Part shown: positions 15,888 to 52,092 of the stretch, in pieces
Numbering within the stretch: the stretch's first letter is position 1
Layout: each line of letters starts with the position of its first letter
DNA from: an uncultured Alphaproteobacteria bacterium
GTDB lineage: Bacteria; Pseudomonadota; Alphaproteobacteria; CACIAM-22H2
Length of the DNA stretch: 64,000 nt
Direction of reading: 5' to 3'
Assembly (NCBI GenBank): GCA_963748455.1
Contig: CAVVJD010000014.1
Span: 445,993 to 509,992, forward strand
Translations under genes and position numbers: made by a program
Notes under the pieces: model-generated
Told to the model about the DNA's origin: nothing
The model's input: the letters and a program-made list of their open reading frames with translations, nothing else
The model's database searches: none

Positions 15888-15975
15888 TCAGCCCGTGGCC
15901 GATGCCGATGCGGCGCGCGCCACGAGGAAGGCCGCAATCAGCAGCGGCGCCAGGCACTCGATCGGTGCCACACAC
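15888..15975 (-). pseudogene. Remnant: 3'-terminal about 88 bp (last about 29 codons) of a GAF-domain gene, paralogous to the 3' end of the intact GAF gene at 20461..20961.
   Basis: Encodes ...EECVAPIECLAPLLIAAFLVARAASASATG*, versus ...EEHVAPIERLAPLLIPAFLVARAASSSTRR* in the intact gene. Nucleotide identity is about 80% over the block, with no similarity beyond it. Confidence 0.75.
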
Positions 15976-15991
15976 TCCTCACGCCTCCGCT

Positions 15992-17632
15992 TCACTCCGG
16001 TATCCCGGCTCTGCGCAGCCCCTCTATGTAAAGCTCCAGTTGCTCCGGGTTTTTTACATAGAAGAGGCGCTTGCGCGCGAAGTTGCAGGCGAAATCCGGC
16101 TTGCGCTGCAGCAGGTCGCCGATTGCCACGCGCAAGTCTTCCGAACATTCCAAGTGCCCCAGGGCCGCGACACGGTGGGCGAACGCCCAATAATGCGCAT
16201 TGGGCACCCGCGTGGCTTTCTGGGCCCATTCGCTGGCCAGCTCGAATTCCCGCGCAAAAATGTGCGCAAGCGCTCCATAAGAGTAGAACGCCCAACGCAA
16301 GGGATCATAAGGGCTCAGCTCGATCGCCCTCTGGAAATAGGGGATCGCCTCGCTGATGCGCCCCTCGTAAACCAGCGAGTCGCCGAGACCGCAATAGCTC
16401 GCCGCAAGACACGGGTTCAGCTCGACCGCCGTTTCCAGCTCGGCTAGCGCGTCTCCATATGCCTTCCCGGCAAGCAGCGCGCGCCCGTACATGAACCGGA
16501 TCAATCCATCCTGGTCGTCGAGCTCGACGCCTTTCCTCCCAATCGCAATGGCCTCGGTGAGCCGCTCTTCGTTCGGCTCGGCCTCGAAATAAACCATGCT
16601 CAGGACGATCGCATAGGACAGGTACCCATAAGCCTCAGCCAGATTGGGGTCGAGTTCCATGGCGCGGCGAAACAGCCGCTGCGCTTCCAGATTGTCCGCA
16701 GGAGTTGATTTGTAAAAGTGTTTCGTCCCAAGCCGGAAAAAGTCCCACGCGTGCAGCGCCGGCACAGCTTTTCGCTCGACGCGCTGCCGCTCGGCCGCGC
16801 CAATCTCGGGCTCGATCCGCGCCGCGATCGTGGTTGTGATTTCGTCTTGTACCTGGAAGAGATCCTGCAGATCGCGGTCGTACCGCTCCGCCCAGAGTTG
16901 CCGGCCGCCTTCGGTCTCCACCAGCTGCGCGGTCATGCGCACGCGCTGCCCGATCTTGCGCACACTGCCCTCGACCAGGTACTCGGCGCCGAGCGTCAAG
17001 CCGACGCGGCGCACATCGCCCCCGCCGCCCTTGAAAGCGAAGCTCGAATTGCGGGCGATCACCACCAGGGACCGGTACTTGGACAAAGCGGTAATGATGT
17101 CTTCCGCGATTCCGTCAGAGAAATATTCTTGCTCTGGATCGCCGCTTAAATTGTTGAACGGCAGTACCGCAACGGACGGCCGTCCGCTCCAATTTAGGGG
17201 AGCGCCTGAGTTGACGGCGCCGAGAGCTTTGTCCGCGACGGCGTCGCCCCCCGCTCCGGGAATAGGTTCAGCGGACACTGCTCGAGTTTGTTCTGGCGAG
17301 CGGCCATTTCCATCTGTCTCAACTCCGCTGCGAACCTCGCCCACAAATCGGAAGCCCTTTCGGGCATAGGTCTTGATCAGAGACTGCTGCTCGCCGCTGT
17401 CCCCCACAGCCTTGCGGGCCGCGGTGATCCGACTGGTCAGGGTTGAATCCGATATGATCCGGCCATCCCAGACCGCCGCGATCAGGTCGTCCTTGGTCAC
17501 CACGCGTTCTCGGTTCTGCACCAAAAAGAGCAGCACATCGAACACCTGCGGCTCGAGCGAGATCGGCTCCTCGCCCCGCCGAAGCTCTCGCCTTCGGCCG
17601 TCCAGGACATAGCCACCAAAACAGAGTTGCAA
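15992..17632 (-). CDS. Winged-helix (OmpR/CadC-type) DNA-binding protein fused to a TolB-N-like domain and TPR repeats.
   Basis: N-terminal trans_reg_C-like region (LEPQVFDVLLFLVQNRERVVTKDDLIAAVWDG...KGFRFV), central VAVLPFNNLSGDPEQEYFSDGIAEDIIT domain, C-terminal TPR-like helices. Confidence 0.8.
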   Translation of the reverse strand: MQLCFGGYVLDGRRRELRRGEEPISLEPQVFDVLLFLVQNRERVVTKDDLIAAVWDGRIISDSTLTSRITAARKAVGDSGEQQSLIKTYARKGFRFVGEVRSGVETDGNGRSPEQTRAVSAEPIPGAGGDAVADKALGAVNSGAPLNWSGRPSVAVLPFNNLSGDPEQEYFSDGIAEDIITALSKYRSLVVIARNSSFAFKGGGGDVRRVGLTLGAEYLVEGSVRKIGQRVRMTAQLVETEGGRQLWAERYDRDLQDLFQVQDEITTTIAARIEPEIGAAERQRVERKAVPALHAWDFFRLGTKHFYKSTPADNLEAQRLFRRAMELDPNLAEAYGYLSYAIVLSMVYFEAEPNEERLTEAIAIGRKGVELDDQDGLIRFMYGRALLAGKAYGDALAELETAVELNPCLAASYCGLGDSLVYEGRISEAIPYFQRAIELSPYDPLRWAFYSYGALAHIFAREFELASEWAQKATRVPNAHYWAFAHRVAALGHLECSEDLRVAIGDLLQRKPDFACNFARKRLFYVKNPEQLELYIEGLRRAGIPE

Positions 17633-17894
17633 GCACCCCTCCTCAGGGCCGCAAGGCAGTTCTCGGGCGAAAATCAGGCCCGTCTCGCGAGCAAATCAAG
17701 CGTCTCTTCAGGCTTTCGGCCCGGCGCTGCGGCATCCTGCCTCGGATCGGTCGCGCGTCGCGTGACCGGCTTCACATGACTGGCGCTGAAGGGAGGATAC
17801 CATGTTCGATGCCCACAGTCCGGCCCGCCTCAAGAACACCGTTATCGATGTCGAATTCCATTGTAGGCAGCCAAGGGCGCTCGGCTGCGCGGCG

Positions 17895-18413
17895 ATGTGG
17901 GACGCGCTCAAACCGCTAGCCGCGGCGTTCAGAATCGGGTTGAGCACCTTGGCCCTCGGACTCGCCATTGCGGCCACCACTTCCGCTCCGGAAGCACGGG
18001 CCCAGGCCGCTGATGGGCATACCATTCTGACCGCCGGCGACATCAAATGGTCGCCCGCCCCGCCCTCATTACCTGCGGGGGCGCAGGCGGCCGTGCTGTA
18101 TGGAGACCCGGGCAAAGACGGTCTATTTGCCCTTCGGCTCAGGCTCCCCAAGGGTTACGCCATCGCGCCGCATACGCACCCAAAACCAGAAATCGTCACC
18201 GTAATTTCGGGGACGTTCCGGCTGGGTATGGGGGAGCGTGCCGACGCAAGCAAGGGCCAGCCTCTTACGGCAGGCAGTTTCTTTGCACTTCACCCAGGCA
18301 TGGCGCATTTCGCCTTCGCCGACGAGGATACGGTCATCCAGCTCAACAGCGCCGGGCCGTGGACACTCGTTTACGTCAATCCAAACGACGATCCGCGCAA
18401 GAAGACCCAGTAG
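17895..18413 (+). CDS. Secreted cupin-domain protein.
   Basis: Signal peptide (LAAAFRIGLSTLALGLAIAATTSAPEARA) followed by the cupin motif G..AIAPHTHPKPEIVTVISG. Confidence 0.75.
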   Translation: MWDALKPLAAAFRIGLSTLALGLAIAATTSAPEARAQAADGHTILTAGDIKWSPAPPSLPAGAQAAVLYGDPGKDGLFALRLRLPKGYAIAPHTHPKPEIVTVISGTFRLGMGERADASKGQPLTAGSFFALHPGMAHFAFADEDTVIQLNSAGPWTLVYVNPNDDPRKKTQ

Positions 18414-18504
18414 ACACATCCGCGAAGCTGCCCGTCTGCAGTTCATCGGGTCGAGCGGCGCTGTCCATATCGCCTCAACAAGCAATTCAAACAGGAGAAA
18501 CCAC

Positions 18505-18873
18505 GTGCCTGAATCCTCACGAGAGCTGGTCGTACTTATGACACATGGCGCCGATCATGAACTCTCCTCGGTCGCCTTCACGATCGCGAATGGCGGCATG
18601 ACGGCGGGCCTAAGGGTTTCCGCATTCTTGACCAGCGCCGCGGTCGATCTGGTGCGAAAGCGCGCCATCGACAGCACGGTCGTGCCCCCGCTCGAACCGC
18701 TCGCATCCTTGGTGAAGGACTTTCTCGCGCGCGGCGGCCGCCTGTGGGCATGCACACCTTGCGTGAAGGCCCGCGGCTACGAGCAGAGCGACCTCATCGA
18801 GGGCGTGGAGATCGCCGGGTCCAGCAAAATACACGAGCTGATCAAGGCCGGAGCCGCGACGCTCAGCTTTTGA
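18505..18873 (+). CDS. DsrE/DsrF-like (YchN-fold) sulfur-carrier family protein.
   Basis: About 122 aa. GTG start 6 nt after AGGAG. DsrE-like core with conserved Cys context LWACTPC. Confidence 0.65.
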   Translation: MPESSRELVVLMTHGADHELSSVAFTIANGGMTAGLRVSAFLTSAAVDLVRKRAIDSTVVPPLEPLASLVKDFLARGGRLWACTPCVKARGYEQSDLIEGVEIAGSSKIHELIKAGAATLSF

Positions 18874-18960
18874 CGCTCGAATTGCCGCCTCACGGCTCCA
18901 AAGGCGTGCGGCACTCACGGACGGGAAATCCACCCAGATTCACAATAAGGAGCTCCGACA

Positions 18961-19737
18961 ATGACCACGATCTCGGCTTTCGATCCAAAGGAACTCGAAT
19001 CCAAGGTGAAAGCGATGTACCGCAGCGTCGCCGAGGACCCGCACGGAGAGTTCCACTTCGAGATGGGCCGCGCGATGGCAGAACGTCTCGGCTACGTACC
19101 AGCAGACCTCGACCGCATACCCGCCGAGGCGATCGAGTCATTTGCCGGCGTCGGCTACTACTTTCATCTCGCCGATCTCAAGCCGGGCGAAATGGTCGTC
19201 GATCTCGGTAGCGGATCGGGGATGGACACGTTCATTGCCGCGCTGAAAGTGGGCTCCCGCGGAAAAGTCACCGGCGTCGATATGACGGACGAGCAGCGAG
19301 CAAAGGCAGAGCGGCTGCGGGACCGGGACGGCTTCCTCAATGTGACTTACGTCAAGGGCTATATCGAGGAAGCTCCCCTGCCGGACGGCCTCGCCGACGT
19401 TGTGATCAGCAACGGCGTCATCAATCTCGCCACGGACAAATCGAAAGTGTTCCGCGAAGCCGGGCGGCTGCTGAAATCAGGCGGCCGGTTCGCGATCTCC
19501 GATATCGTGACGGAGGTGCAGCTGCCCGAAAGCATCGTGTGCAATTCAACCCTCTGGGCCGCCTGCATCGGAGGCGCCGCGCAGCAGGACAATTATCGCC
19601 AGATGATCGAGGCGGCCGGACTACGTCTGGTCAAGGTGGAAGACAATCCGCAATATCAGTTCATCTCCGACAACGCCAAGGGCGCGAGCAAAAAGTTCGG
19701 CGTGAAGAGCATCTCGTTGCTGGCCGTCAAACCTTAA
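18961..19737 (+). CDS. ArsM/UbiE-like class I SAM-dependent methyltransferase; ArsM homolog lacking the As(III)-binding cysteines.
   Basis: Strong resemblance to arsenite methyltransferase cores (GEMVVDLGSGSGMD...VDMTDEQ...VISNGVINL...GGRFAISDIV). The ArsM cysteines are replaced (NGVINL instead of NCVINL) and there is no N-terminal CC pair. Confidence 0.7.
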   Translation: MTTISAFDPKELESKVKAMYRSVAEDPHGEFHFEMGRAMAERLGYVPADLDRIPAEAIESFAGVGYYFHLADLKPGEMVVDLGSGSGMDTFIAALKVGSRGKVTGVDMTDEQRAKAERLRDRDGFLNVTYVKGYIEEAPLPDGLADVVISNGVINLATDKSKVFREAGRLLKSGGRFAISDIVTEVQLPESIVCNSTLWAACIGGAAQQDNYRQMIEAAGLRLVKVEDNPQYQFISDNAKGASKKFGVKSISLLAVKP

Positions 19738-19752
19738 AGGATCGAAGGAAAA

Positions 19753-20439
19753 ATGCGCCAGGCGGAGACGACAGACGTCAACTTGATGCGGTTGTCGTCG
19801 GATCGAGGCCGAATGACCCTACCCGGCTTTTTCGAAGGGACTGGCATGCCCGATCCCGGTTGGTGGGAGGCACTTTTTCCCGATCCGGCCCGGGTGATCC
19901 GCGACGTCGGGGTCGCGCCGGGCATGAGGGTTGTGGACCTATGTTCCGGTGACGGCTGGTTCACGTTGCAATTGTCAAAGATTGCGCGAGCGGTAACCGC
20001 CATCGACATAGACGGCAAGATGCTTGAGAGGGCACGCGTCCGGCTGACCGAAATCGGCCTTACCAACTGCGTCTTCGTTGAGGCCAATGCTTACGACGTT
20101 GCCAAGGTCGTGCACGATCGTGTTGACCATGTGTTTCTGGCAAACGCATTCCACGGGGTGCCAGACAAGTCGCGGCTTGCACACGCCGTCCACGACGTTC
20201 TGAAGCCTGGCGGGACGTTTGCCGTCGTGAATTGGCACGCCCGGCCACGCGAGGAAACGACAATTCTAGGCGAACCCAGGGGGCCAGCGACGGAAATGCG
20301 GATGCGACCTGAAGAAACGATCGCAGCTATGCAGTCGAGCGGGCTTACATTTATGAGGCAAATCGAGGTCCCACCCTATCACTACGCGGTGGTGTTCAGG
20401 CGCAGGCATCCTTGCTTGAGAAGTATGGGAATCTTGTGA
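19753..20439 (+). CDS. Class I SAM-dependent methyltransferase.
   Basis: Motif I VVDLCSGDGWF and post-I acidic residue AIDID. Sits 15 nt after the previous methyltransferase gene, so likely co-transcribed. Confidence 0.75.
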   Translation: MRQAETTDVNLMRLSSDRGRMTLPGFFEGTGMPDPGWWEALFPDPARVIRDVGVAPGMRVVDLCSGDGWFTLQLSKIARAVTAIDIDGKMLERARVRLTEIGLTNCVFVEANAYDVAKVVHDRVDHVFLANAFHGVPDKSRLAHAVHDVLKPGGTFAVVNWHARPREETTILGEPRGPATEMRMRPEETIAAMQSSGLTFMRQIEVPPYHYAVVFRRRHPCLRSMGIL

Positions 20440-20460
20440 GCGAAAAATTCTGACGAGGGC

Positions 20461-20961
20461 TCAGCGCCTTGTCGAAGATGACGCGGCGCGAGCAACAAGG
20501 AAAGCCGGAATCAGCAGCGGCGCCAGGCGCTCGATCGGCGCCACATGCTCCTCGCGATAGTGGAATTCCGGGGCGAGCAGGTTCGCGGTGCCGATGACCT
20601 GGCCGTCATAGACCACCGGCACGTTGATGACCGAGCCCAGGCCCATGCTCTCGATCAGCGCGTGGTCGAAGAAGGCCCAGCGGATCGCCGCCTTGTCGCG
20701 GCCGAGGAAGGATTTCTGGCCTTTCATCACATGCTCGCCCCAGGGCGTGGGGCCCATCGGCTTGCGGCCGAAGACCGGATATTCCGCCGGGCGGTTGGAA
20801 TAGATGCGCGCCACTTCCTGGCCGTCGACATAGAGGAGCGTGAAAAGCTCGTGCCCAACGAGCCGCTTGGCCGTGGCGTCGAGGGCGCGGAAGAACGTCT
20901 CGGGCTGACCGGGCTCAGCCAACAGGCGCGACAAGGCGGCAAAGTCTTCAGGCATGGACAC
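20461..20961 (-). CDS. GAF-domain protein.
   Basis: About 165 aa single GAF-like domain. Its last about 29 codons are duplicated (diverged) at 15888..15975. Confidence 0.75.
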   Translation of the reverse strand: MSMPEDFAALSRLLAEPGQPETFFRALDATAKRLVGHELFTLLYVDGQEVARIYSNRPAEYPVFGRKPMGPTPWGEHVMKGQKSFLGRDKAAIRWAFFDHALIESMGLGSVINVPVVYDGQVIGTANLLAPEFHYREEHVAPIERLAPLLIPAFLVARAASSSTRR

Positions 20962-20968
20962 TCTCTTG

Positions 20969-21884
20969 TCAGGAATTGGAGGAAGCGGGCGTCGGTGCTT
21001 TGGGGATGCGCTCCGGCAGGAGACCTTGCGGGCGCAGATGCAGCACCAGGATGAGCGCCAGGCCGATCAGGATCTCGCGCAAGGCGGCGAGTTGCACGGG
21101 CTGGAGGCCGGGCAGCCACTCCGTAGCGAAACGCGTTGCCTCGAGGAAGATCACGACGATGTAAGCCCCGAACACGGCGCCGCTCGGGCGCCCGACGCCG
21201 CCGGCGGTGACCGCGAGGAAGATATAGATCGTGATCAGCGGCTGGAAATGATCGGGTGAGACATAGGACTGGAAATGCGCGTAGAGCGCGCCGGCCAGCG
21301 CCGCAATCGCCGCCGACAGCGCGAAAGCCTGCCATTTGAAGCGCAGCACCGGCTTGCCGGCGAAGGCGGCGAGCTGCTGATCCTCGCGGATCGCCTTCAT
21401 CGCGCGGCCATAGGGGGATCGGTCGAGCCGGCGCAGCAGCAGCCAGACCAGCACGACGATCGCCGTCACCAGAGCGAGATAGAACAGATTGAAGCCCTGC
21501 AGGCCGATCTGCGGCCTTGAAGGGCGCCTTGATGCCGGAGATGCCGTCCGAGCCCTTGGTCAGCCAGCGCTCGTTGAGCGCGATCAGGCGGATCACCTCG
21601 GCAAAGCCGAGGGTCACGATGGCCAGATAATCGTCGCGCAGGCGCAGCGTCGCGAAGGTGACGCAGAGCCCGACGACGGCGCCGACGACGAGGGCCGCGC
21701 CCCAGCCGAGCAGAACCGGCGCGCCCGCACCAGTCGCGATCGCGGAGGCATAGGCGCCGACGGCGAAGAAGCCAGCGAGGCCAAGATTGACCAAGCCCAC
21801 ACCACCCCAAATCAAATTGAGGCTGAGCGCCAGCAGCGCGTAGATGCCGCAGATCGTCAGGGTGAAAATCGCGTAGGACAGCAT
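20969..21884 (-). pseudogene. livM: Branched-chain amino acid ABC permease LivM-like, frameshift near 21500.
   Basis: N-terminal part (MLSYAIFTLTICGIYALLALSLNLIWGGVG...) and C-terminal part (TAIVVLVWLLLRRL...LHLRPQGLLPERIP) are in different frames. The junction reads IKAPFKA|PQIGLQGFNLFYLA after a 1-nt correction. Confidence 0.7.
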
Positions 21885-22747: not shown

Positions 22748-22767
22748 CGTGCGAGCGATCCCCTTGC

Positions 22768-23980: not shown

Positions 23981-24016
23981 CCCCTCTTCGTTGCGTTTTG
24001 CTTGGTCAAGTCGTTG

Positions 24017-26192: not shown

Positions 26193-26305
26193 AACTTACA
26201 AACAGTCAAGTTTGTTTCTGCTGGATTGTGCGCAAAGGCGCACGTCAGACGACGCACGCCGACTTGTCGGGCAGTGCGCGAAGCCGCCGACCGGCTAAAT
26301 GATGG

Positions 26306-26798: not shown

Positions 26799-26865
26799 TA
26801 CGACTTTCATTCTGTTCTCCGTTTCATGATCATGTGGCGGCTTGATGCCGTGGACGAGCCCGTCG

Positions 26866-27306: not shown

Positions 27307-27374
27307 ATGCGATGAACCACCCGAACCCGGCCACGCTAGGCGTGGCGGGTCGCGCGTGCATCGGGAGGTGCTCC

Positions 27375-39560: not shown

Positions 39561-39564
39561 GACG

Positions 39565-40923: not shown

Positions 40924-41040
40924 GGAGAGGCTCCTTCTGGCGAATTCCCGCAGAATCTGCCACGTAATCTATGGCAATAGATTTCGTTCTGGCATTCCGT
41001 TATTTTCATACTGGAATGGGCCAGAGAGGAGTTCTTGAAA

Positions 41041-41567
41041 TGAATGAAAAGAACAGGGCGAAGTCGGGCCCACCCGAAGAGGCGGCGCCGGTGGCTCTCG
41101 ACCCAATCGACCGCAAAATTCTCGACATCCTGCAGGAGAACAACCAGGTCACGAACCTGGAGCTCGCCGAGCGGATCGGTCTTTCGCCCCCACCCTGCCT
41201 GCGCCGCGTGCGCCAGTTGCACGAGCGCGGCGTCATTGCCAAAGATGTGGCCATCGTCGATCCGGCCAAGGTCGGCCGCACCATCACCGCATTTGTCGGC
41301 GTCGAGTTGGACCGCCAACGCGAGGACGTGCTGGCGAGCTTCGAGCGCAAGATCCGTGCCGAACCTGAAGTGCAGCAATGCTATTTCGTCTCGGGCGATA
41401 TCGACTACCTGCTGGTTGTCACGTGCGTCGACATGCCGAGCTACAACGCTTTCGCACGGCGCGTGCTGGCCAACGAGCATAACATCAAGCGCTTCCGCAC
41501 CAGCTTCAACCTGTCGCGGATCAAATACGAAACCAAGGTGCCGCTGGGGGCGGCGGCTTCGGACTGA
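41041..41567 (+). CDS. Lrp/AsnC-family transcriptional regulator.
   Basis: LDPIDRKILDILQENNQVTNLELAERIGLSPPPCLRRVRQLHERGVI (HTH_AsnC) plus a RAM domain. Divergent from the SHMT-like gene. Confidence 0.85.
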
Positions 41568-41676
41568 TCGCAAGCAGCGCATTTTTTGCAGGGACGAACT
41601 CTCAAGCCACGCCTAGAATGCGATCTTGGTGAGTCCTCCGAGTGCGCCGAGCCCGGCCGGGATGGGACCTCAACCA

Positions 41677-44600: not shown

Positions 44601-45178
44601 GCTGGGACATCCCGCGCCTTGGCGCCATCGCCGCCTCGCTGCTCGGCGTCGCACATGCCCTGAATGGGCTGCCCCACACGAAGGCGTGCCGTTCCTGGAG
44701 ACAGCAGCAGTCCAGCTTAAATCCGAGAAAGGAAGCTCCGAGACCCGCCTGATCATTCCCATATGCGAGGGATATTTGCTGGCCGGCCGGATTGAGGACG
44801 CGATCCGGCTCGCCGACCGCGCCCTCCACGGCTCCCGGACGCGCAAGGAACGCGGATACGAGGCGCAGGCATCTGCGCCTCCTCGGCGACATCGCCGCGC
44901 GCCGCGATCCACCGGACGGCGACGAAGTCCGAATCCCGCTACCGCCAAGCGCAGAAACTGGCCGAGGACTCTTGGCGATGCGGCCGCTCCAGGCCCATTG
45001 CCATCTCGGCCTTGGCAAGCTCTACCGGCGCATGGAAAGAGCGCACGAGGCGCATTTTGAACTTTCCACGGCCGTCGACATGTTGCGGACAATGGAGATG
45101 ACGTTCTGGCTGCCAGAGGCAGAGGCCGAACTGGCGGAGGCGATAGCATCGCCATCGGCGAAGCGAGTCGGATTATAG
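41677..45178 (+). pseudogene. Heavily decayed class III adenylate/guanylate cyclase - AAA ATPase - TPR regulatory protein, about 10 frameshifts.
   Basis: N-terminal zinc-ribbon (CAACDADNPAAAKFCAACGASLGVPCPRCGHGNRPSSRFC), cyclase core (VTVLFADIKGSTEL...GDGIMALFGAP), P-loop (LVGEPGVGKSRL), DUF/AAA_16 region and C-terminal TPR helices. These are spread over at least 10 different overlapping ORFs in three frames. Confidence 0.8.
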
Positions 45179-45227
45179 CCCCCTCCTTCACCGCCGACCT
45201 TCCTACAACGACCACGCCGATACCCGC

Positions 45228-45325
45228 CAACGAGCAAAACATCAAGCGCTTCCGCACCAGCTTCAACTTGGCACGGGTCAAATACGAGACCAAGGTGCCA
45301 CTGGAGGAGAACGCCACGGCCTGAC
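45228..45325 (+). pseudogene. Remnant: diverged 3' end (last about 31 codons) of an Lrp/AsnC-family gene.
   Basis: Encodes ANEQNIKRFRTSFNLARVKYETKVPLEENATA*, versus ANEHNIKRFRTSFNLSRIKYETKVPLGAAASD* at the end of the intact lrp (41470..41567). About 85% nucleotide identity over about 95 bp. Confidence 0.75.
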
Positions 45326-45417
45326 GAGGTACATCCCTGCCGCTTGATCTTCACGGAACCTTTGCGAGAAATCACCGGTTTAGGTTGTAAAACCACCCTT
45401 GCGCAGGAGATAGTGCC

Positions 45418-45786
45418 ATGGCTGTGCGCGACGATCTTCTCAAGCTGGAAAGGCAATTCTGGACCGGCGACGCGGATTTCTATCGCGAGCATCTGGACGA
45501 CAAATGCCTCGTGGCCTTCACGGACATGGCGGGCGTCATGGGCAAGGAGGATATCGCCCAGATGGTGAAGAAGGACCCGCCGCGGTGGAGCGACCTAAAA
45601 TTCGAGGACAAGGGCATGGTCACGCCCGCCGACGGAATCGCTATTCTGAGCTATCAGGCCAGCGGCAAGCGCGGTACCGGCGCGGCGTACAAGGCGGTCG
45701 TCAGCAGCGGCTATGTGAAACGCGATGGCGCGTGGAAGATGGCCTTTCATCAGCAGACGCCGCTTGGAACCGACGCCGGAAAATAG
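45418..45786 (+). CDS. SnoaL-like / NTF2-like (DUF4440-type) small protein.
   Basis: 122 aa. LERQFWTGDADFYREHLDDKCLVAF...DGAWKMAFHQQTP pattern of the NTF2-like superfamily. AGGAGA RBS. Confidence 0.6.
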   Translation: MAVRDDLLKLERQFWTGDADFYREHLDDKCLVAFTDMAGVMGKEDIAQMVKKDPPRWSDLKFEDKGMVTPADGIAILSYQASGKRGTGAAYKAVVSSGYVKRDGAWKMAFHQQTPLGTDAGK

Positions 45787-45962
45787 TCCAAGGGAGCTCA
45801 AGCGTGCATCGGTGGAGGTCGCAGACAGACTATTCTGCAAGCTACGCAATTGTTCCTTGTGCTCGCCGCTGGCGAAGTCCGCCGTTGGATGCGATATAGA
45901 CACTGCTCTACTCTTATAGGTTTTAGTCGCGAGCAGAACCGTCCGGGCGATCCAAGGGATCC

Positions 45963-48455
45963 ATGCGCAAGACTTTCTTCTATGCCGGCGTGTTCCTCAC
46001 ATGCCTGGCGACATTGATGCTGCAGATCATCGAGACGCGCCTGCTCTCGGTGACCGCGCATTATCATCTCGCCTTCTTCTCGATCAGCATGGCAATGTTC
46101 GGCATGACGGCCGGTGCCGTCTGGGTTTACTACAACAGTGCGCGCATCACCGCTGAAACTCTAGCGTCCACCCTGACCAAATTCGGGTCCGCTTTTGCCC
46201 TTGGCACCGTCGCCTCGGTCCTGCTGCAAGTCACGCACGCCCCGGTCCTGGTTCTGTCCGCCACCACGATCCTGACCTGGGCCGAACTCGCCATCGTCAT
46301 GGCGACGCCGTTTTTCTTCTCGGGCGTGGTTGTCAGCATCGCCCTGACGCGCAGTCCCTTCCCCGTAAATCAGATCTACGCCGTCGACCTGATCGGTGCC
46401 TCGCTCGGATGTCTGGGCGTGCTCGCTCTCCTGGATGTCCTCGATGCCGTTTCCAGCATTTTCGCGGTTGCGGCCGTCGGCGCCGCGGCGGCGGGCTGCT
46501 TTGCCGCGTCCGCGGCCCGGCCTGCACGACGCAATTCCCGGCTTCTGGATCGCGTCCTGTTCCGCCCGTGGACGATCTGCGCGGTGCTGATCGCAATGGC
46601 CGTGGCGAATGGCGCCACGATCCGGGGTATCCAGCCGATCGTCGTCAAGAACACGGTCGACCGCCGCGAGAACCTGTCGTTCGAGCAATGGAACTCCTAT
46701 TCCAGAATCATCTCGCGAAAGCCGTATGTCGACGAGCCGCTGCTGTGGGGCCCCTCACCGACAATGCCGGCGGATTTGAAGGTCGAGCAACGCCGCCTCA
46801 ACATCGATGGCGACGCCGCGACGAGCATGTTCCGGTTCAATGGCGATGTCGCCAGCGCCCGGTTCCTGGCCCATGACGTGACAAACCTCGCCTACGCCAT
46901 CCGCAATTCGGGACGCGCCGCGATCATCGGCGTCGGCGGCGGCCGCGACATGTTGTCGGCCTGGATGTTCGGCTTTCGCGACATCACGGGCGTCGAGCTC
47001 AATCCCATATTCATCGATCTCCTTACGACTCATCCGAATTTTCGGAACTTCGCCGGCCTCGCGTCGCTGCCGGGTTTGCGTTTCATCGTTGACGAGGCTC
47101 GCAGCTGGTTCGCGCGATCGACCGACAGTTTCGATCTCATCCAGATGAGCATGATCGATACGTTCGCGGCGACCGGTGCCGGCGCGTTCTCGCTCTCCGA
47201 GAACGGGCTTTATACGATCGAAGGATGGCAGCATTTCCTGAACCGTCTTGCGCCGAACGGCGTGTTCACGGTCAGCCGATGGTATTCCGCAGGTGAGGTC
47301 AATGAGACCGGCCGGATGATCAGCCTCGCGGTCCGCACGCTGTTGGACAACGGCGTGCACGACCCGTCACGCCACATCTTTCTCGGCGCGACCGGAAATC
47401 TTGCGACGCTGGTGCTGTCACGCACCCCACTCACCGCTGCCGAGATTGCAGCATTGCACAAGACTTCGAGCGATCGGGAGTTTCAGATCCTGCTCAGTCC
47501 CGGACGTCCGGCAGCGTCGCCGCTTCTGGCGTCCATCACCGCCGCGAAGAGTCCTGCGGAACTCGCGCGCGCGACGTCGGGGTATCTCCTCGATCTCAGT
47601 CCACCCACCGACGACCGCCCGTTCTTTTTCAATCAACTGCCGCTGACACGGGCCCACATGGCTCTCAACGTGCAGAGTTTCGAGAAGCCCGGCGTTCTGA
47701 GCGGCAACATCATCGCGTCGGCGACGCTGCTGCTGATCGTCGTCCTGGCGTCGATCCTGGTGCTGGCGACGATCGTGATCCCGATGCGGCCGGCGATCCG
47801 GCAATCCGATGCGCGCCTGATCGCCGCCGGCACGGTTTATTTCGTCCTGATCGGCCTCGGCTTCATGTTTGTCGAGATCGGGTTGTTGCAGCGGCTCTCG
47901 GTCTTTCTCGGCCACCCGATCTATTCGCTCAGCATCGTGCTGTTCAGCATCATTCTCTTTACCGGCCTCGGCAGCTTCGCCTCCGCGCGCCTTGCCCTTG
48001 ACCAGTCCGGCCGGTTTGCGGCCTGGGCGATCGGGCTCGCGGCCTATGTCTTTGTCCTGCCGATCATGCTGCCGGCGTTCATCGAGTCCTTCGCGGGGGC
48101 CGACACATTTCAGCGCGCGATCGTCGCTATCGGCCTGATCGCGCCCGGTGCCATCCTGATGGGGTTCGGCTTTCCCGCGGGCATGCGTCTGGTCATGCAG
48201 ATCGATGCCCGCCCCGCGCCATGGTTCTGGGGCATGAACGGGGCCGCGGGCGTGCTGGGCTCGGCCATCGCGGTCGCCATCAGCATCTCATTCGGAATCG
48301 ATACGACGCTTCGCCTGGGTGCGTTGTGCTACCTGGGGCTGCATCCCCGCCGCCTATCTGCTCGTCGGCGAGCGCCGGGCACAGATCGAAGCCGCCATCC
48401 TGCCGCCATCGGTGACGGCTACCGATTGACCACCATGCGATTGTCCGAGGCGTAG
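45963..48455 (+). CDS. Membrane-embedded spermidine/spermine-synthase-like fusion protein (N-terminal multi-TM, central aminopropyltransferase-like SAM fold, C-terminal multi-TM). Possible frameshift in the last about 35 codons.
   Basis: About 7 N-terminal TM helices. SAM-fold motifs AIIGVGGGRDM and DLIQMSMIDTFAATGAG. About 7 C-terminal TM helices. An alternative frame near 48345 gives a hydrophobic tail ...GLIPAAYLLVGERRAQIEAAILPPSVTATD*. Confidence 0.7.
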   Translation: MRKTFFYAGVFLTCLATLMLQIIETRLLSVTAHYHLAFFSISMAMFGMTAGAVWVYYNSARITAETLASTLTKFGSAFALGTVASVLLQVTHAPVLVLSATTILTWAELAIVMATPFFFSGVVVSIALTRSPFPVNQIYAVDLIGASLGCLGVLALLDVLDAVSSIFAVAAVGAAAAGCFAASAARPARRNSRLLDRVLFRPWTICAVLIAMAVANGATIRGIQPIVVKNTVDRRENLSFEQWNSYSRIISRKPYVDEPLLWGPSPTMPADLKVEQRRLNIDGDAATSMFRFNGDVASARFLAHDVTNLAYAIRNSGRAAIIGVGGGRDMLSAWMFGFRDITGVELNPIFIDLLTTHPNFRNFAGLASLPGLRFIVDEARSWFARSTDSFDLIQMSMIDTFAATGAGAFSLSENGLYTIEGWQHFLNRLAPNGVFTVSRWYSAGEVNETGRMISLAVRTLLDNGVHDPSRHIFLGATGNLATLVLSRTPLTAAEIAALHKTSSDREFQILLSPGRPAASPLLASITAAKSPAELARATSGYLLDLSPPTDDRPFFFNQLPLTRAHMALNVQSFEKPGVLSGNIIASATLLLIVVLASILVLATIVIPMRPAIRQSDARLIAAGTVYFVLIGLGFMFVEIGLLQRLSVFLGHPIYSLSIVLFSIILFTGLGSFASARLALDQSGRFAAWAIGLAAYVFVLPIMLPAFIESFAGADTFQRAIVAIGLIAPGAILMGFGFPAGMRLVMQIDARPAPWFWGMNGAAGVLGSAIAVAISISFGIDTTLRLGALCYLGLHPRRLSARRRAPGTDRSRHPAAIGDGYRLTTMRLSEA

Positions 48456-48545
48456 CGATTCAGGCCGCGATCGAAGACGAAAATCGCCAGCGCGCCATAG
48501 ACCAGCGCCGCGGCCATCACGGCCATCGCCTTGAATACGACCCAA
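48419..48545 (-). pseudogene. Remnant: diverged 3' end (last about 35-40 codons) of an ABC-2 permease gene, paralogous to the 3' end of 50509..52092.
   Basis: Encodes ...AMAVMAAALVYGALAIFVFDRGLNRYASDNRMVVNR*, versus ...FAAVIAAACIYGALAVFIFERGLRHYASGNRMVVNR*. About 78% nucleotide identity over about 125 bp, none beyond. Confidence 0.75.
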
Positions 48546-48618
48546 GGTGCCGCTGGCGGCGAGTGCCGCGGGCTGACAGGCCAAAGATCGTAAAGGGAGT
48601 CACACCGAGTCTTCGCCA

Positions 48619-49262
48619 TCAATAGGCAAGGCGACCATAGAGCTCCTCGAACGGAACCATCACGTGCTGTTGATAGGCGCGACGATCCTGGAGGCGCTGA
48701 TACCAGGCCTTCACGTTGGGAACCGACGGGCGCTCAATCTCAAGATTGAAATAGCGATAGAGACAGGTTCCGGCCGGAATGTCGGCCAGCGTCAGGGCGT
48801 TGCCGAGGAGGAAATCGCGCCCCGCGAGCTGACGATCGAGCAATGTGAAATGCCGCGCGCAGAGATCGATCTTCTTGCGCACTGCCGCCGTGTCGCGCTG
48901 CCGCGCCGGGGTGCAATAGAAGCCCCAGAAAACGCCCATCAGGAAATCGGGCTGCAGCGTGGTGTGCGCCCAATCCATCCAGCGATCCGATTGCGAGCGT
49001 TCGGCCGGCGCATCCTGCCAAAATGCGCCCCGCCTATAGTGAGCCGCCAGATATCGCAAGATTGCGTGCGATTCCCAGACGACCGTGCCGTGATCGTCGA
49101 TCACCGGCACCTTGCCGTGCGGGTTCATGGCGCGAAATTCGGCGCGTCCAGGCCACCGAAGGAACCGCCGGCCTCGATATGCCGGTGCTCGAGCCCAAGC
49201 TCGTCGACCATCCACATGACCTTCTGCACATTGAATGAGCTGCGCCGCCCCCAGATCGTCAG
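48619..49262 (-). pseudogene. Glutathione S-transferase, frameshift near 49140.
   Basis: N-terminus MLTIWGRRSSFNVQKVMWMVDELGLEHRHIEAGGSFGGLDAPNF is in one frame. The continuation MNPHGKVPVIDDHGTVVWESHAILRYLA... (ORF 48619..49353) is in another. Confidence 0.7.
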
Positions 49263-49294
49263 CATTCAATACCCCTCTCGCATGCACGCGTCGG

Positions 49295-49891
49295 TCAGCA
49301 GGTCGGAAAACCGAGATGCGCGCGGAGCCGGTTCTTGACATGCACCGCATCACGCGGCGGCAACGAGCGCGGCGGATTCTCCGCCTTTATCTTCAGGACA
49401 AAGAGTCGCGGACCCACGGCGGGCTGGCGCAGAACATCGCAAAGCGCGTCGACCTCCGCGAGGGTGCGGACAATGCCGGCCTCGGCGAAACCGCAAGACG
49501 CGGCGACAGCGGCGAAATCGAGGCCCTTCGCCGTGTGGCTTGCCTGCATTCCGGTTTCACCGAAATGCTCGTTGTCGAGGATGATCAGAGCAAGGTTCTT
49601 TGGCTTTGCAGCCGAAATCGTGGCCAGGCTGCCGAAGGCCATGAGCTGCTCCCCGTCGCCGGTGATGACCATGACGCGGCGCTTGGGCTGAGCCTGCGCA
49701 AGGCCAAGCCCGACGAGTGCGGCCGCGCCCATGGCACCCCATAGGTAGTAATTGTCGTCACGATCACCGGCGGCATGGACATCGTAGCTTGGCGATCCAA
49801 GACCGGTGACAACCAGAGCCTGATCGCGGCCGGCCAAGAGCGTGCGGACAGCATCGCGACGATCCATCGTAATCGGGGCTTGAACGTTCAT
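49295..49891 (-). CDS. comE: Sulfopyruvate/phosphonopyruvate decarboxylase-like TPP enzyme, beta subunit (ComE-like).
   Basis: TPP-binding motif GDGEQLMAFGSLATI...ILDNEHFGETG (GDG-X24-NN-like). Confidence 0.7.
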   Translation of the reverse strand: MNVQAPITMDRRDAVRTLLAGRDQALVVTGLGSPSYDVHAAGDRDDNYYLWGAMGAAALVGLGLAQAQPKRRVMVITGDGEQLMAFGSLATISAAKPKNLALIILDNEHFGETGMQASHTAKGLDFAAVAASCGFAEAGIVRTLAEVDALCDVLRQPAVGPRLFVLKIKAENPPRSLPPRDAVHVKNRLRAHLGFPTC

Positions 49892-49895
49892 GATG

Positions 49896-50477
49896 TCACC
49901 ACTTCTTCTCGCCAAGCAGGCGCTGGCCGATCAGCACCGCGATCTGCTGCTCCGCCTCGTAAGCCTGCGTTGCCGCCGACGCGACGGTTGCGATCAAATC
50001 CTCTGCCGTCTCGGCACGCATCACCCGCAGGCCGATCGCTTCGAGCGACGGCTGTGTCGCCCGGCTCATCGGCATCTGCCAGGGATTGAACTCCGCCCAC
50101 TCCCCGCGCATCGTGACCAGGATCAGCAAGGGGAACCGCGCCAGCACCGGCAGCGATAGCATATTGATGCAGTTGCCCACACCGCTCGACTGCATGAGCA
50201 GCACGCTGCGCTGCCCGCCGAGCCAGGCGCCCGCCGCAATCGCCACGCCCTCCTCCTCCGTCGTCAGCACGTTCGAAACGACGTCGAGATCCGCCAGGAA
50301 CAGATTGATCAGGGCCGAATGGCCTGCGTCCGGGACATAGGCCATGTGCTGAACGCGCGCGGCCTTCAGCAGCCTATAAAGCTCGGTCGGCCATTCACTC
50401 GTGGTTTCGGCTCCGGCATGAGCCACGGGATGCTGGTCGGCACCGGCCACGGTCACCCTCCTCTGGGTCGATTGCAC
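49896..50477 (-). CDS. comD: Sulfopyruvate/phosphonopyruvate decarboxylase-like TPP enzyme, alpha subunit (ComD-like).
   Basis: TPP pyrimidine-binding domain (YVPDAGHSALINLF...TTEEEGVAIAAGAWLGGQRSVLLMQSSGVGN). Sits 4 nt upstream of the beta subunit. Confidence 0.7.
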   Translation of the reverse strand: MQSTQRRVTVAGADQHPVAHAGAETTSEWPTELYRLLKAARVQHMAYVPDAGHSALINLFLADLDVVSNVLTTEEEGVAIAAGAWLGGQRSVLLMQSSGVGNCINMLSLPVLARFPLLILVTMRGEWAEFNPWQMPMSRATQPSLEAIGLRVMRAETAEDLIATVASAATQAYEAEQQIAVLIGQRLLGEKKW

Positions 50478-50508
50478 TGCCTCAACGACTATAACAGATC
50501 AGTCCGTT

Positions 50509-52092
50509 CTATCGATTGACGACCATCCGGTTGCCTGATGCGTAGTGGCGCAGTCCACGCTCGAAGATGAAGACCGCAAGCGCGCCATAGATGCAAGCTG
50601 CCGCAATCACAGCAGCGAACTTGCCAGGATCAGACTCGCGTATGGCCTCAACGGGCACCTGTGAGATGAACGCGACCGGCAACAGCGTGAACAGCAGGAT
50701 GCGCATGCCGGCCCCGAAGACGTGCTGGGGATAGACCGAGATCATCAGCACGACATTGACCAGCTCCTCGCCCAGGCGCACGGCGCGCGGCCACCAGAAG
50801 ACCAGGCACTGGCCCATCACGAAGGTGGCCAGCATCACGATGCCGCCAGCGGTGGCGAGCGCGATCAGCAGCGGCAGATCGGCAACGCTGCGCCCGCCCA
50901 GCACCAGCCACATCACGGGCGCACTGGCGAGATCGCCGAAGCCCGATGGGATCGAGCGCGACAGCAGCAGGCTGGGCAGCGGATGACGTGGCCGGCCGAG
51001 ATGGACATCGAGCCCGCCATCGGCGATGGCGCGGCCCATGTCGCGGAAGCCGCCGGCCATCGTCACGCTCAGGCCGAACGCCCAGGCCGCCATGCCGTAG
51101 AGCAGCGCGACATCCTGCTGCTGCCAGCCGGCCAACTCGCGAAAGCGCGCGAAATAGATCATCCAGATGATGAAGAAGACGAGGTTGTTGGCGAACATCA
51201 GGACGACGGAAACCAGCGCCTCGCCGCGCCGCGCGAAACCGGCCTTGATGTTGGTTGCCAACAGGGCGCCGAGATAGGTCAGCATGGCTGAGACTTCGTC
51301 GCGCACGAAACGGCGTGTCGCCGCGGCCGCAAGCAACGCCACGGCGATACCGACGATCGCCAGCCAGAAGACCTGCCAGGCGAAGACGCGCGCAATCGCG
51401 TGCGCGCTTGAGTCAAAGACCAGGCTCGCCGGGTGGAACATGATGGCGGCGAATGGCGACACCTCGCCGATGGCGCGGATGGCCGGCGGATAGAGGGTGA
51501 GCGGGATCAGCAGCCCGCCGAAGATGAACGCCAGCTTCTGCCAGACCCAGAAGAACGGTGCGGGCGTGCTGAGCCAGGCGGTCAGCAAGCCGGTGCCGAG
51601 CTGGAGCAGCAGCATGAGCACGGCGCCGACCGCCACGGTCAGCACCAGGACCGGCACCGTCACGAGGGCAAACGGCACCGTTCCCGTCGCCAGCGCGGTG
51701 ACGAGCGCGCCGATGGCACCCAGGGTCAGCAGGCGATAGGCGCCGCCGCCCAGCCACTCGGCGAAGACCGCCAGCGCATAGGGCAGCGGGCGCGTGAGGG
51801 AAGCTTCGACGGCGCCGGAGCGGATCTCGTCTTCCACTTCGCGGAAGGCGTGGCCGCCGATGAACACCACCCATTCCGTCACCATCACGTACCAGGCGAT
51901 GCTGGCTGCGTCGTAACCGGGCAGATCGACCAGACCCAGCGGTGTTGCCGCCCAGACCGCGACGAAGACGAGGACGGGCACAACGAACAGCAAAGCCCGC
52001 GCCGCCATGCCGACGCGATCGGCAGCGGCCTCGCGCCAGCCCAAGCGCGCGAAGGCGCCGAGAGCGGCGACGATGCGCGCGACTTCGCTCAT
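50509..52092 (-). CDS. ABC-2-type exporter permease (two fused ABC-2 membrane domains).
   Basis: 527 aa, about 12 TM helices, with duplicated ABC-2 family architecture. Translationally coupled (overlap) with the upstream ATPase. Confidence 0.75.
   Translation of the reverse strand: MSEVARIVAALGAFARLGWREAAADRVGMAARALLFVVPVLVFVAVWAATPLGLVDLPGYDAASIAWYVMVTEWVVFIGGHAFREVEDEIRSGAVEASLTRPLPYALAVFAEWLGGGAYRLLTLGAIGALVTALATGTVPFALVTVPVLVLTVAVGAVLMLLLQLGTGLLTAWLSTPAPFFWVWQKLAFIFGGLLIPLTLYPPAIRAIGEVSPFAAIMFHPASLVFDSSAHAIARVFAWQVFWLAIVGIAVALLAAAATRRFVRDEVSAMLTYLGALLATNIKAGFARRGEALVSVVLMFANNLVFFIIWMIYFARFRELAGWQQQDVALLYGMAAWAFGLSVTMAGGFRDMGRAIADGGLDVHLGRPRHPLPSLLLSRSIPSGFGDLASAPVMWLVLGGRSVADLPLLIALATAGGIVMLATFVMGQCLVFWWPRAVRLGEELVNVVLMISVYPQHVFGAGMRILLFTLLPVAFISQVPVEAIRESDPGKFAAVIAAACIYGALAVFIFERGLRHYASGNRMVVNR

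Follow-up and report, generated by a model that had tools for sequence, protein, structure and literature searches.

In three places of the window, the 64,000-nt stretch of contig CAVVJD010000014.1 from an uncultured alphaproteobacterium analysed here, an intact gene is followed by a block of accessory genes and then by a diverged copy of the gene's own 3' end. The three genes encode a GAF-domain protein, an Lrp regulator and an ABC-2 permease. This arrangement raises the question of whether a mobile element integrates into the ends of protein genes in this lineage, as the preliminary description had suggested, or whether the repeated ends were left behind by another process.

Duplicated gene ends in the window

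Self-BLAST of the 64 kb recovered all three of the intact-gene/3'-remnant pairs, and no other direct repeat in the window is longer. The GAF pair aligned without gaps over 96 nt (81% identity, E 3.5e-19), and the lrp pair over 99 nt (85% identity), with a BLAST core of 82 nt at 90% identity (E 3.7e-25). The ABC-2 pair aligned over about 105 nt (50509-50613 vs 48419-48523, 74% identity), with a core of 83 nt at 78% identity (E 3.9e-12), and homology to the related contig L164 extends this remnant to 48535. Stretches of exact identity within the remnants span 12-30 nt. Thus, the pairs described from the sequence alone all align at the nucleotide level, essentially where they had been placed; only two edges moved slightly, that of the GAF remnant from 15975 to 15983 and that of the ABC-2 remnant from 48545 to 48535. 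In each pair the remnant lies on the strand of the intact gene with the stop codons in register, similarity is lost abruptly at the 5' edge of every repeat, and each block begins at the stop codon of the intact gene. The gene contents given for the blocks agree with Pfam, and the cyclase gene is decayed as described (Table 1).

In addition, we found a fourth fragment that had been overlooked, a second and shorter piece of the lrp tail adjoining the truncated edge of the ABC-2 remnant; a 16-base pattern of the lrp tail gave three matches, with none expected. What had been described as one ABC-2 permease gene corresponds to two genes in relatives, joined here through a 1-nt insertion. The lrp gene most likely starts at 41041 and encodes 175 aa, in line with its length of 174-175 aa in relatives. 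Screening 140 related loci (2.2 Mb) revealed no duplication of a locus's own GAF or lrp tail.

Table 1. Features at the GAF and lrp-ABC-2 loci of the window
Feature	Position	Strand	Remarks
Cassette 2 (frameshifted periplasmic-binding-protein (PBP) gene, alpha/beta hydrolase, MarR)	12993..15887		Not in L081
GAF 3' remnant	15888..15983	-	96 nt, 81% identical to intact tail; stop in register; non-functional
Cassette 1 (CadC/TPR regulator, cupin, DsrE-like, two methyltransferases)	15984..20460		Pfam; L081 homology
Intact GAF-domain gene	20461..20961	-	Pfam GAF_2; last in conserved liv ABC-transporter unit; repeat copy is tail 20461-20556
Intact lrp/asnC regulator	41041..41567	+	Pfam; divergent from SHMT-like gene; repeat copy is tail 41469-41567
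Decayed double-zinc-ribbon/cyclase/AAA_16/TPR gene	41568..45225	+	3 in-frame stops, at least 2 frameshifts
lrp 3' remnant 1	45226..45324	+	99 nt, 85% identical to intact tail
DUF4440 gene and p830 (830-aa membrane spermidine-synthase-like)	45325..48418	+	L164-type cassette
ABC-2 permease 3' remnant	48419..48535	-	About 117 nt; 90% identical to L164 functional tail
lrp 3' remnant 2	48534..48577	+	44 nt including stop
GST and comE/comD-like TPP decarboxylase subunits	48578..50508	-	Pfam; P0121/L166-type cassette
Intact ABC-2 permease	50509..52092	-	Two ABC2_membrane_6 genes, fused; repeat copy is tail 50509-50625, L166-like

The remnants themselves are without function. That of GAF carries H to C, R to C and P to A changes where the 70 listed homologs are conserved or near-conserved, and lrp remnant 1 has Q for the H of the NEHNI motif, which is H in the 80 listed homologs. 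Counted by codon position 1/2/3, intact tail and remnant differ at 6/2/10 sites for GAF and at 3/3/11 for ABC-2, and this third-position bias implies that both versions of each tail diverged as working genes, before the events that brought them together. The functional ABC-2 tail of L164 shares 90% identity with the window's remnant but only 71% with its intact tail, while the intact tail, itself 74% identical to the remnant, resembles that of L166, suggesting that the two tail types were pre-existing alleles. The L164 tail and the codon bias thus bear out one part of the preliminary description, namely that a replaced 3' end is followed downstream by the older one; they do not extend to a new mode of integration.

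Gene arrangements in metagenomic relatives

GAF, lrp and ABC-2 each terminate a conserved gene unit, beyond which lies strain-variable DNA. The liv-GAF synteny was found in about 50 of ~80 related GAF loci with variable DNA 3' of GAF, and L083 and about 80 further GAF loci carry different DNA downstream of the gene. The SHMT-lrp pair is likewise kept in about 40 related loci, and the DNA downstream of it varies.

Several relatives show alternative arrangements between lrp and ABC-2. In L167 the two genes are directly convergent with about 290 nt between them, representing the empty site. In L164, an lrp tail, DUF4440 and p830 converge on a full-length ABC-2: positions 1-3294 match the window at 45233-48535 (89.8% identity), the homology stops precisely at the joint between the ABC-2 remnant and the lrp tail (48535), and it resumes at the intact ABC-2 gene (50510), again at 89.8%. 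L164 lacks the GST-comED insertion at this site. The window resembles it both in the contiguity of lrp remnant 1 with the DUF4440-p830 cassette and in the convergent, collinear overlap (37 nt) of the ABC-2 remnant with the end of p830. The gene order is lrp-p830-GST-ABC2 in L165 and lrp-p830-DUF4440-GST-comE-comD-ABC2 in L166, where positions 12904-17871 (GST-comE-comD-ABC2-ATPase) are collinear with 48614-53609 of the window (83.8% identity) and spacers of only 25 and 49 nt leave no room for a remnant. Nor is there room for remnants in the P0121 contig, in which a full lrp gene abuts GST-comE-comD and holds the position that lrp remnant 2 occupies next to GST in the window. L166 and L165 carry the same blocks without remnants, the very observation that the preliminary description had named as speaking against its reading.

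In the window, the GST/comDE block terminates on its far side in a piece of lrp, which adjoins the ABC-2 remnant with nothing in between, indicating that this block is a chunk of a related chromosome reaching from inside ABC-2 to inside lrp. Taken as a whole, the alternative arrangements in relatives imply that at each locus of the window two alternative cassettes follow one another and are joined non-homologously inside copies of the flanking genes, and given the gene-by-gene differences in cassette make-up the blocks do not behave as fixed units. None of the relatives' contigs fetched contains the junctions, the collection searched has no contig with the window's own p830 protein, and a search for donor genomes of the lrp-cyclase and GAF-MarR adjacencies yielded none.

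At the GAF locus, the informative relative is L081. Its cassette 1 adjoins GAF and is 95.3% identical to that of the window; homology stops precisely at 15983/15984 and picks up again in RibD_C, at only 87.9% as against 95.3% in the block. RibD_C lies about 60 nt past the methyltransferase block in L081, and the PBP-hydrolase-MarR cassette is not there. The block thus occurs here without the 96-nt remnant, but a possible 23-nt trace of a GAF tail lies 14 nt beyond the same block end. If the joints in L081 and the window were independent, the block end would look more defined than random breakage would give. From the L081 comparison, the DNA inserted at the GAF locus may be the MarR side and not the bracketed block; the arrangement fits best with a resident methyltransferase block and with arrival of the PBP-hydrolase-MarR cassette and the GAF tail from the RibD_C side.

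Origin of the remnants

All four joints lie 44-117 nt from a stop codon, and the microhomology at them is 0-2 nt. The first connects GAF(-96) to a point 9 nt past the CadC stop, the second connects ABC2(-117) to lrp(-44) non-homologously with about 2 nt of microhomology, and the third connects lrp(-99) to a point 47 nt past the cyclase stop.

We consider it probable that illegitimate recombination left the remnants behind as scars at two hypervariable sites between conserved gene units, liv-GAF/RibD_C and SHMT-lrp/ABC2-ATPase. Related strains hold different gene cassettes at both sites. In the window's lineage, DNA from such a strain would have recombined homologously within one conserved flank, while its other end would have been joined non-homologously inside a copy of the conserved flanking gene, 44-117 nt from its stop codon. 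Because of the position of that joint, the incoming cassette would have been added beside the resident one and not swapped for it, and the dead 3' tip of the flanking gene would have stayed between the two. At least three such events would be needed (the GAF/CadC, ABC2/lrp and lrp/cyclase joints), and candidate routes for them are homology-facilitated illegitimate recombination (HFIR), single-crossover integration of a circularised fragment, and homolog-templated break repair followed by end joining. The narrow span of the joints (44-117 nt) is not predicted by illegitimate recombination and may reflect detection bias and the stability of short, diverged repeats. The density of three events within 37 kb is high and counts against this explanation.

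The preliminary description had instead taken the blocks for integrase-less modules or decayed islands, moved by a trans-acting site-specific recombinase and providing the target gene with a new 3' end, as happens at tRNA/tmRNA genes. The order of head, new tail, cargo and old tail with a sharp repeat edge is indeed the classic attL/attR signature, the exact identities in the remnants could in principle serve as cores, the possible second GAF-tail trace in L081 lies no more than 14 nt from the same block end, and three cases occur within 37 kb of one genome. However, the blocks are free of integrase genes, as had been described, and a Pfam scan found no recombinase either in them or among the roughly 50 ORFs of the window; the blocks have no terminal inverted or direct repeats, and the joints have no core motif in common, a point that the preliminary description had proposed to check. 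Moreover, the blocks end inside chromosomal neighbours (the GST block in lrp, the p830 cassette in ABC-2), vary in composition by gene, and have their gene sets remnant-free in L166, L165, L164 and the P0121 contig, that is, as ordinary neighbourhoods. This explanation is therefore quite unlikely, and an undescribed integration mode is unsupported. It is unlikely, too, that two strain haplotypes of the metagenomic population were concatenated in assembly into a false haplotypic duplication. Each locus resembles two known haplotypes in tandem, isolated 1-nt insertions relative to relatives (frameshifted livK, livH, livM and PBP gene, and the ABC2a/b fusion) are possible consensus errors, and neither the p830 protein nor the junctions were recovered in the contigs covered by the searches. 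Yet 0-2 nt shared at the joints offer no basis for overlap or k-mer assemblers, three independent mis-joins that each keep a complete functional gene copy in register are improbable, and the remnants' extra substitutions at conserved residues fit real, decaying relics.

Alternatively, a single genome could have duplicated the stretch between lrp(-44) and ABC2(-117) in tandem, with an equivalent duplication at GAF, after which the two copies diverged and each lost genes that the other kept. Such a duplication would yield exactly the ABC2-tail/lrp-tail junction, and the window halves sum to the L166 gene set (p830 and DUF4440; GST-comE-comD). Nevertheless, it appears very improbable, as the L164-like and L166-like ABC-2 tail types predate the event, the third-position differences indicate purifying selection on both copies, and the overlap of p830 with the ABC-2 remnant matches the gene order of L164, where GST-comED is not inserted. 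Least credible of all is an origin of the remnants from neighbouring paralogs of which only the final piece escaped deletion. ABC2_membrane_6 permeases do occur paired as paralogs, and some relatives have liv operon paralogs, but the remnants align to orthologous 3' ends with stops in register at 74-85% nucleotide identity; that of ABC-2 matches the orthologous L164 tail at 90%, lrp remnant 1 is collinear with the lrp tail, spacer and DUF4440 of L164, and tandem paralogs of GAF or lrp occur at these positions in no relative examined.

Comparison with known systems

Tyrosine recombinases insert genomic islands at the 3' ends of tRNA, tmRNA or protein genes. As in the window, a direct repeat of the gene 3' end brackets the insert and the supplied end keeps the gene intact; in contrast, neither an integrase nor defined element ends are found here, the insert runs at its far end into part of a neighbouring core gene, and the same genes are repeat-free in relatives. 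In minimal mobile elements, or replacement-type flexible genomic islets, of Neisseria, strains differ in the whole-gene cassette that they carry at one site between two conserved genes, and the cassettes are exchanged by homologous recombination in the flanks (PMC3787668, PMC1797815), which resembles the lrp-ABC2 site with its differing cassettes in L164, L165, L166, L167 and the P0121 contig. However, the clean model predicts scarless replacement, whereas the window has two stacked cassettes with flank-gene fragments between them.

C-terminal displacement follows the same logic: Jackson et al. 2009 (PMC2935791) account in this way for the displaced 3' tips at rhs, and Kirchberger et al. 2017 (PMC5361080) for those at the T6SS loci of Vibrio cholerae. 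In rhs/CDI/T6SS systems, as in the window, an intact gene with an acquired 3' end and cargo is followed by a displaced older tip, repeated events lead to tip arrays (the window lrp has two tips), and homologous recombination with circular intermediates or HFIR has been proposed without a dedicated recombinase. Unlike them, the window's GAF protein, Lrp regulator and ABC-2 permease have no conserved-core/variable-toxin design and no immunity gene, and their tips, of only 44-117 nt, are under no obvious selection to be kept.

HFIR combines homologous recombination at one end with an illegitimate joint of 3-10 bp microhomology; the majority of the products recovered in E. coli had 109-950 bp of the homologous locus duplicated through a single crossover with a circular molecule, and experiments have demonstrated HFIR and single-crossover integration of circularised fragments in Streptococcus pneumoniae, Acinetobacter baylyi, Pseudomonas stutzeri and E. 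coli (PMC3240628). As with HFIR, one junction in the window lies in register within a conserved gene, guided by homology, and the other is non-homologous with hardly any microhomology or none; the insert is the donor's ordinary chromosomal neighbourhood, and the homologous locus is duplicated, which in HFIR products can extend over about 100-950 bp. The window differs in that its joints show 0-2 nt of microhomology instead of the usual 3-10 bp and apparently no deletion of resident DNA, and in that HFIR was observed directly, whereas here we infer the process from scars in a natural genome. The duplicated gene ends are thus real, but they are probably scars of sloppy recombination that stacked the gene sets of related strains, and not the footprints of a new integrating element.

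Displaced gene ends in the window

As the preliminary description had proposed, the window carries three pairs in which an intact gene is accompanied by a dead copy (remnant) of its own 3' end. A repeat search, run on 14-54 kb first and then on the whole 64-kb window, returned the tail pairs of an lrp gene, a GAF gene and an ABC-2 permease gene as the three longest direct repeats of the window. The corresponding self-BLAST E-values were 3.7e-25 (lrp), 3.5e-19 (GAF) and 3.9e-12 (ABC-2), those for lrp and ABC-2 referring to BLAST cores of 82 and 83 nt, respectively. In gapped alignments, the stop codons of intact tail and remnant were in register in all three pairs, and no similarity was detected past the 5' edge of any of these repeats, in agreement with the abrupt ending noted originally. 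Pfam assigned the tail-bearing genes to GAF_2, AsnC/Lrp and ABC2_membrane_6 and also upheld the gene contents described for the blocks: a CadC/TPR regulator, a cupin, a DsrE-like gene and two methyltransferases on the GAF side; a zinc-ribbon/cyclase/AAA_16/TPR gene on the lrp side, indeed decayed, with 3 in-frame stops and at least 2 frameshifts; and a GST with two TPP-enzyme subunits (comD/E-like) on the ABC-2 side.

Duplicated 3' gene ends in the window (tail pairs from the repeat search)
Feature	Intact tail	Remnant	Strand	Length	Identity	Remark
lrp tail pair	41469-41567	45226-45324		99 nt	85%
GAF tail pair	20461-20556	15888-15983		96 nt	81%
ABC-2 tail pair	50509-50613	48419-48523		~105 nt	74%
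lrp remnant 2		48534-48577	+	44 nt, including stop		Third copy of the lrp 3' end; repeat family D8

The lrp gene is thus followed by two successive tips, and a 16-base lrp-tail pattern matched three times in the window against 0 expected. The second tip adjoins the ABC-2 remnant (minus strand, 48419-48535) at its truncated 5' side, so that ABC-2 and lrp tips on opposite strands are fused base of tip to base of tip, an arrangement that a module integrating into ABC-2 alone would not give. The k-mers spanning the three junctions are GCGGAGGCGTGAGGAGTG, GATACCCGCCAACGAGCAA and CGCCTTGAATACGACCCAAGG.

Between intact tail and remnant, the differences at codon positions 1/2/3 number 6/2/10 for GAF and 3/3/11 for ABC-2. 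This predominance of third-position differences indicates that the two tail versions diverged while purifying selection still acted on them as functional alleles. In addition, residues conserved in the respective families are replaced in the remnants (in GAF H->C, R->C and P->A; in lrp H->Q within NEHNI), which fits relic decay after separation. The last ~140 nt of the ABC-2 gene (window 50509-50650 and its equivalents in the related loci L164-L166) showed 47-80% identity in every pairwise comparison, versus 87-100% elsewhere in the gene, so that the tail is a polymorphism linked to the downstream cassette and moves with it. The intact ABC-2 gene was also tested for a sharp breakpoint of divergence at -116, which was rejected, because this stretch is hypervariable in all pairs and the drop alone marks no breakpoint.

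Contents of the same sites in relatives

When species-representative genomes were scanned with lrp, the closest relatives reached 75-79% at the amino acid level, and the widely conserved divergent SHMT-lrp pair was the sole syntenic part, with unrelated DNA downstream. Closer metagenomic relatives were obtained by protein searches followed by contig look-ups, and among them the lrp-ABC2 site has five different contents, the empty one included. The empty site is found in L167, where SHMT-lrp is followed by ~290 nt and a convergent ABC-2 gene. L165 carries SHMT-lrp-p830 (p830 encodes an 830-aa membrane spermidine-synthase-like protein) and convergent GST-ABC2-ATPase; L166 carries SHMT-lrp-p830-DUF4440 and convergent GST-comE-comD-ABC2-ATPase; and in the P0121 contig, SHMT-lrp directly adjoins GST-comE-comD. 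This contig, as well as P0122 and P0002 (all from 3300078620), was compared by gene order only. Finally, L164 (~90% nucleotide identity) carries lrp tail-DUF4440-p830, which runs convergently into a full ABC-2 gene and overlaps it; the ATPase gene follows.

For this locus, the comparison with L164 is decisive. Its positions 1-3294 align with window 45233-48535, ending exactly at the joint of ABC-2 remnant and lrp tail, while positions 3179-5578 align with the intact ABC-2 side (window 50510-52910), both at 89.8% identity. The functional ABC-2 tail of L164 is 90% identical to the window remnant and 71% identical to the intact tail of the window, which is instead L166-like, its first 27 nt being identical to L166. 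L166 itself is collinear with window 48614-53609, and remnants would not fit into its spacers, which measure 25 and 49 nt. These comparisons indicate that the window contains an L164-type cassette with both flanking gene tips beside a P0121/L166-type cassette with an lrp tip. The decayed cyclase gene sits upstream of both stacked cassettes.

Several further observations concern these loci. The 830-aa protein (window 45963-48455; L169:3244-5688) had no Pfam match, and an exact protein look-up with the window copy returned no exact match on record; its homologs are labelled in some sources as 'membrane-bound spermidine synthase' or SAM-dependent methyltransferase. In one MAG (L169) the homolog lies at an unrelated locus, with a response regulator on one side and coaD-gyrA on the other, and the order of p830 and DUF4440 differs between L164 and the window on one side and L166 on the other. 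One inserted nucleotide close to the 3' end of the L166 lrp gene (L166:9286-9951; AAGAGTGCC vs AAGGTGCC) lengthens the called ORF to 221 aa. Just past lrp, L167 and L168 contain GC-rich palindromes similar to an inverted repeat at window 10858-11016 (47-nt arms, 94% complementary, 65 nt apart, rich in CCCTCCCC/GGGGAGGG), which resembles a REP- or MITE-like intergenic palindrome; the L167 lrp-ABC2 spacer also holds a ~190-nt element with terminal inverted repeats (CTGATTCCCGCGG...). The L164 contig begins exactly 30 nt before a variant base in the lrp tail (L164:1-31; TTC->TGC, F->C at a conserved Lrp residue). Logan assembly uses k=31, and a k=31 graph would break at this point given a second lrp-tail sequence in the sample; thus this lrp tip may be a remnant in the L164 genome too, accompanied there by an intact lrp gene.

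At the GAF locus, ~50 of ~80 related loci share a conserved unit made up of the liv transporter genes and a following GAF gene, and the DNA downstream of GAF is different in nearly all of the ~80. In L081, the methyltransferase/CadC block adjoins GAF with 95.3% nucleotide identity to the window, and homology stops exactly at window 15983/15984, 9 nt past the CadC stop. Beyond the block end, L081 has ~60 nt and then RibD_C, which lies 3 kb further off in the window and is 87.9% identical; window 12993-15983, with a frameshifted PBP gene, a hydrolase, MarR and the GAF remnant, is missing from L081. The 60-nt spacer between the CadC block and RibD_C (L081:6747-6806) contains a 23-nt match to the GAF-remnant end, CATCGGCATCAGCCGAGCGCTGA, with the stop in register (shuffle p ~0.001), which could represent a further GAF tip, of lesser length, carried by a relative. 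The CadC-side block end common to the window and L081 lies within 14 nt of this possible trace. The simplest reading is that the window holds two alternative GAF-RibD_C cassettes in a stack. Of the two directions, the likelier is that the incoming fragment was anchored in RibD_C and ended inside the donor's GAF, given the identity step from 95% to 88% and the joint just beyond the RibD_C-side homology.

In L098, comE/comD homologs (L098:11448-12610; 77% and 71% amino acid identity to those of the window) lie just downstream of GAF and not beside ABC-2, indicating that the same accessory genes fill different variable sites in different genomes. Isolated indels relative to L081, L083 and L164 were also observed at window 21509, 22281, ~23222, ~13737 and ~51286-51291, none in a homopolymer; where resolved, each is an insertion of 1 nt. 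The indels put livM, livH, livK and the PBP gene (13125-14200) out of frame, and one insertion changes the ABC2a stop from TAG to TCAG, fusing ABC2a and ABC2b into a single 527-aa ORF; they represent either real pseudogenisation of transport genes or consensus errors.

Proposed formation of the scars

The preliminary description had read the pattern as elements that integrate into gene 3' ends, perhaps by an undescribed mode, replacing the 3' end and displacing the older one. The replacement and displacement of gene ends proved structurally right, but neither an integrative element, with its recombinase, core and defined ends, nor a new mode of integration is supported. No integrase, transposase or resolvase was found by Pfam in any block gene, as had been stated, nor among the ~50 window ORFs scanned. 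The three joints share no common motif (pairwise scores 8-12), and no terminal inverted or direct repeats at block ends stood convincingly above shuffles, the direct-repeat score of 21 for the p830 cassette slightly exceeding the 95% null of 19 and falling below the null maximum of 26. A search for terminators at the remnants gave no more than chance-level results. Element ends with the same boundaries did not recur in L164, L165, L166 or the P0121 contig, in which these genes simply adjoin one another and are bounded differently; only the CadC-side block end recurs, in L081. The block ends fall inside neighbouring core genes, that of the GST block inside an lrp fragment and that of the p830 cassette inside an ABC-2 fragment. 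In addition, relatives such as L166 carry the same genes without remnants. Site-specific integration, which at gene 3' ends comes with an integrase, recurring ends and an att-like core, is therefore disfavoured.

In-situ tandem duplication, to which the junction of ABC-2 and lrp tails first pointed, is rejected, as the two cassettes are unrelated, L164 and L166 already have both tail types as functional alleles, and third codon positions are over-represented among the differences. That the remnants are leftovers of deleted paralogs is excluded by their in-register alignment to the ortholog and by the collinearity with L164. An assembly chimera is unlikely, since the joints lack shared sequence usable by an assembler and the remnants show relic-type decay.

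We propose instead that each structure arose by a single exchange guided by homology in a conserved flank, combined with one joint formed without homology. The block DNA is collinear with the neighbourhoods of the anchor gene in relatives: L081 (GAF and block), L166/P0121 (GST-comE-comD by ABC2/lrp) and L164 (lrp tail-DUF4440-p830-ABC2). A homology-guided exchange combined with a non-homologous second junction is the definition of homology-facilitated illegitimate recombination (HFIR); the molecular route, the entry of the DNA into the cell and the donor partner are what we infer. The donor arrangements, lrp-cyclase and GAF-MarR/hydrolase adjacency, did not occur among 169 loci. The joints have 0-2 nt of microhomology, ~2 nt (AA) between ABC-2 (-117 from its stop) and lrp (-44) and at most 1 nt between CadC (+9) and GAF (-96), which is shorter than the 3-10 bp usual in HFIR experiments (PMC3240628). 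In E. coli, such substrates more often gave a product in which 109-950 bp of the homologous locus were duplicated, through one crossover with a circularised molecule (PMC3240628).

Displaced 3' tips downstream of an intact gene with a newer 3' end are likewise found in rhs/CDI/T6SS arrays: at rhs loci as 'C-terminal displacement', for which circular intermediates were proposed (PMC2935791), and at V. cholerae T6SS effector loci as 'sequential displacement', for which HFIR was proposed (PMC5361080). However, those arrays combine a conserved core, a variable toxic tip and an immunity gene, whereas Pfam detected no toxin or immunity domains in the GAF-, lrp- and ABC-2-locus genes. The lrp-ABC2 site and the DNA downstream of GAF also resemble minimal mobile elements or replacement flexible islets, in which different cassettes occupy the same conserved flanks in different strains.

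The distance from joint to stop codon is 44-117 nt in all four cases, and three events fall inside 37 kb, versus none of 140 related loci (2.2 Mb) with a self-repeat overlapping the anchor gene's own GAF or lrp tail. The narrow range of distances from the stop codons may result from ascertainment and the greater stability of short, diverged repeats. A so far unrecognised lineage process, recombinase-independent or trans-acting, with a preference for joining chromosomal fragments that enter the cell to sites ~50-120 nt inside conserved gene 3' ends, appears very improbable, and keeps a small residual weight owing to this event density and the CadC-side end shared with L081. Such a process may involve break-prone convergent-gene ends with Ku/LigD end joining, or the processing of GTA-delivered fragments. 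If true, cassette stacking with 3'-tip scars would be systematic, lineage-specific gene gain and not a few accidents.

Implications for gene gain

The scars are a new example of known illegitimate recombination and 3'-tip displacement at cassette-exchange sites, and no new class of mobile element is revealed. Dead 3' tips should not automatically be read as att sites of integrative elements, and for annotation, gene-end duplications alone are insufficient for calling islands. The window records cleanly, in a natural genome, how cassettes 'swapping' between conserved genes can go wrong and end up 'stacking'. The genes concerned are ordinary ones with housekeeping and regulatory roles in an uncultured soil-type alphaproteobacterium, and the short 3' tips left dead beside them can serve as marks of earlier illegitimate joints and help to order gene gains.
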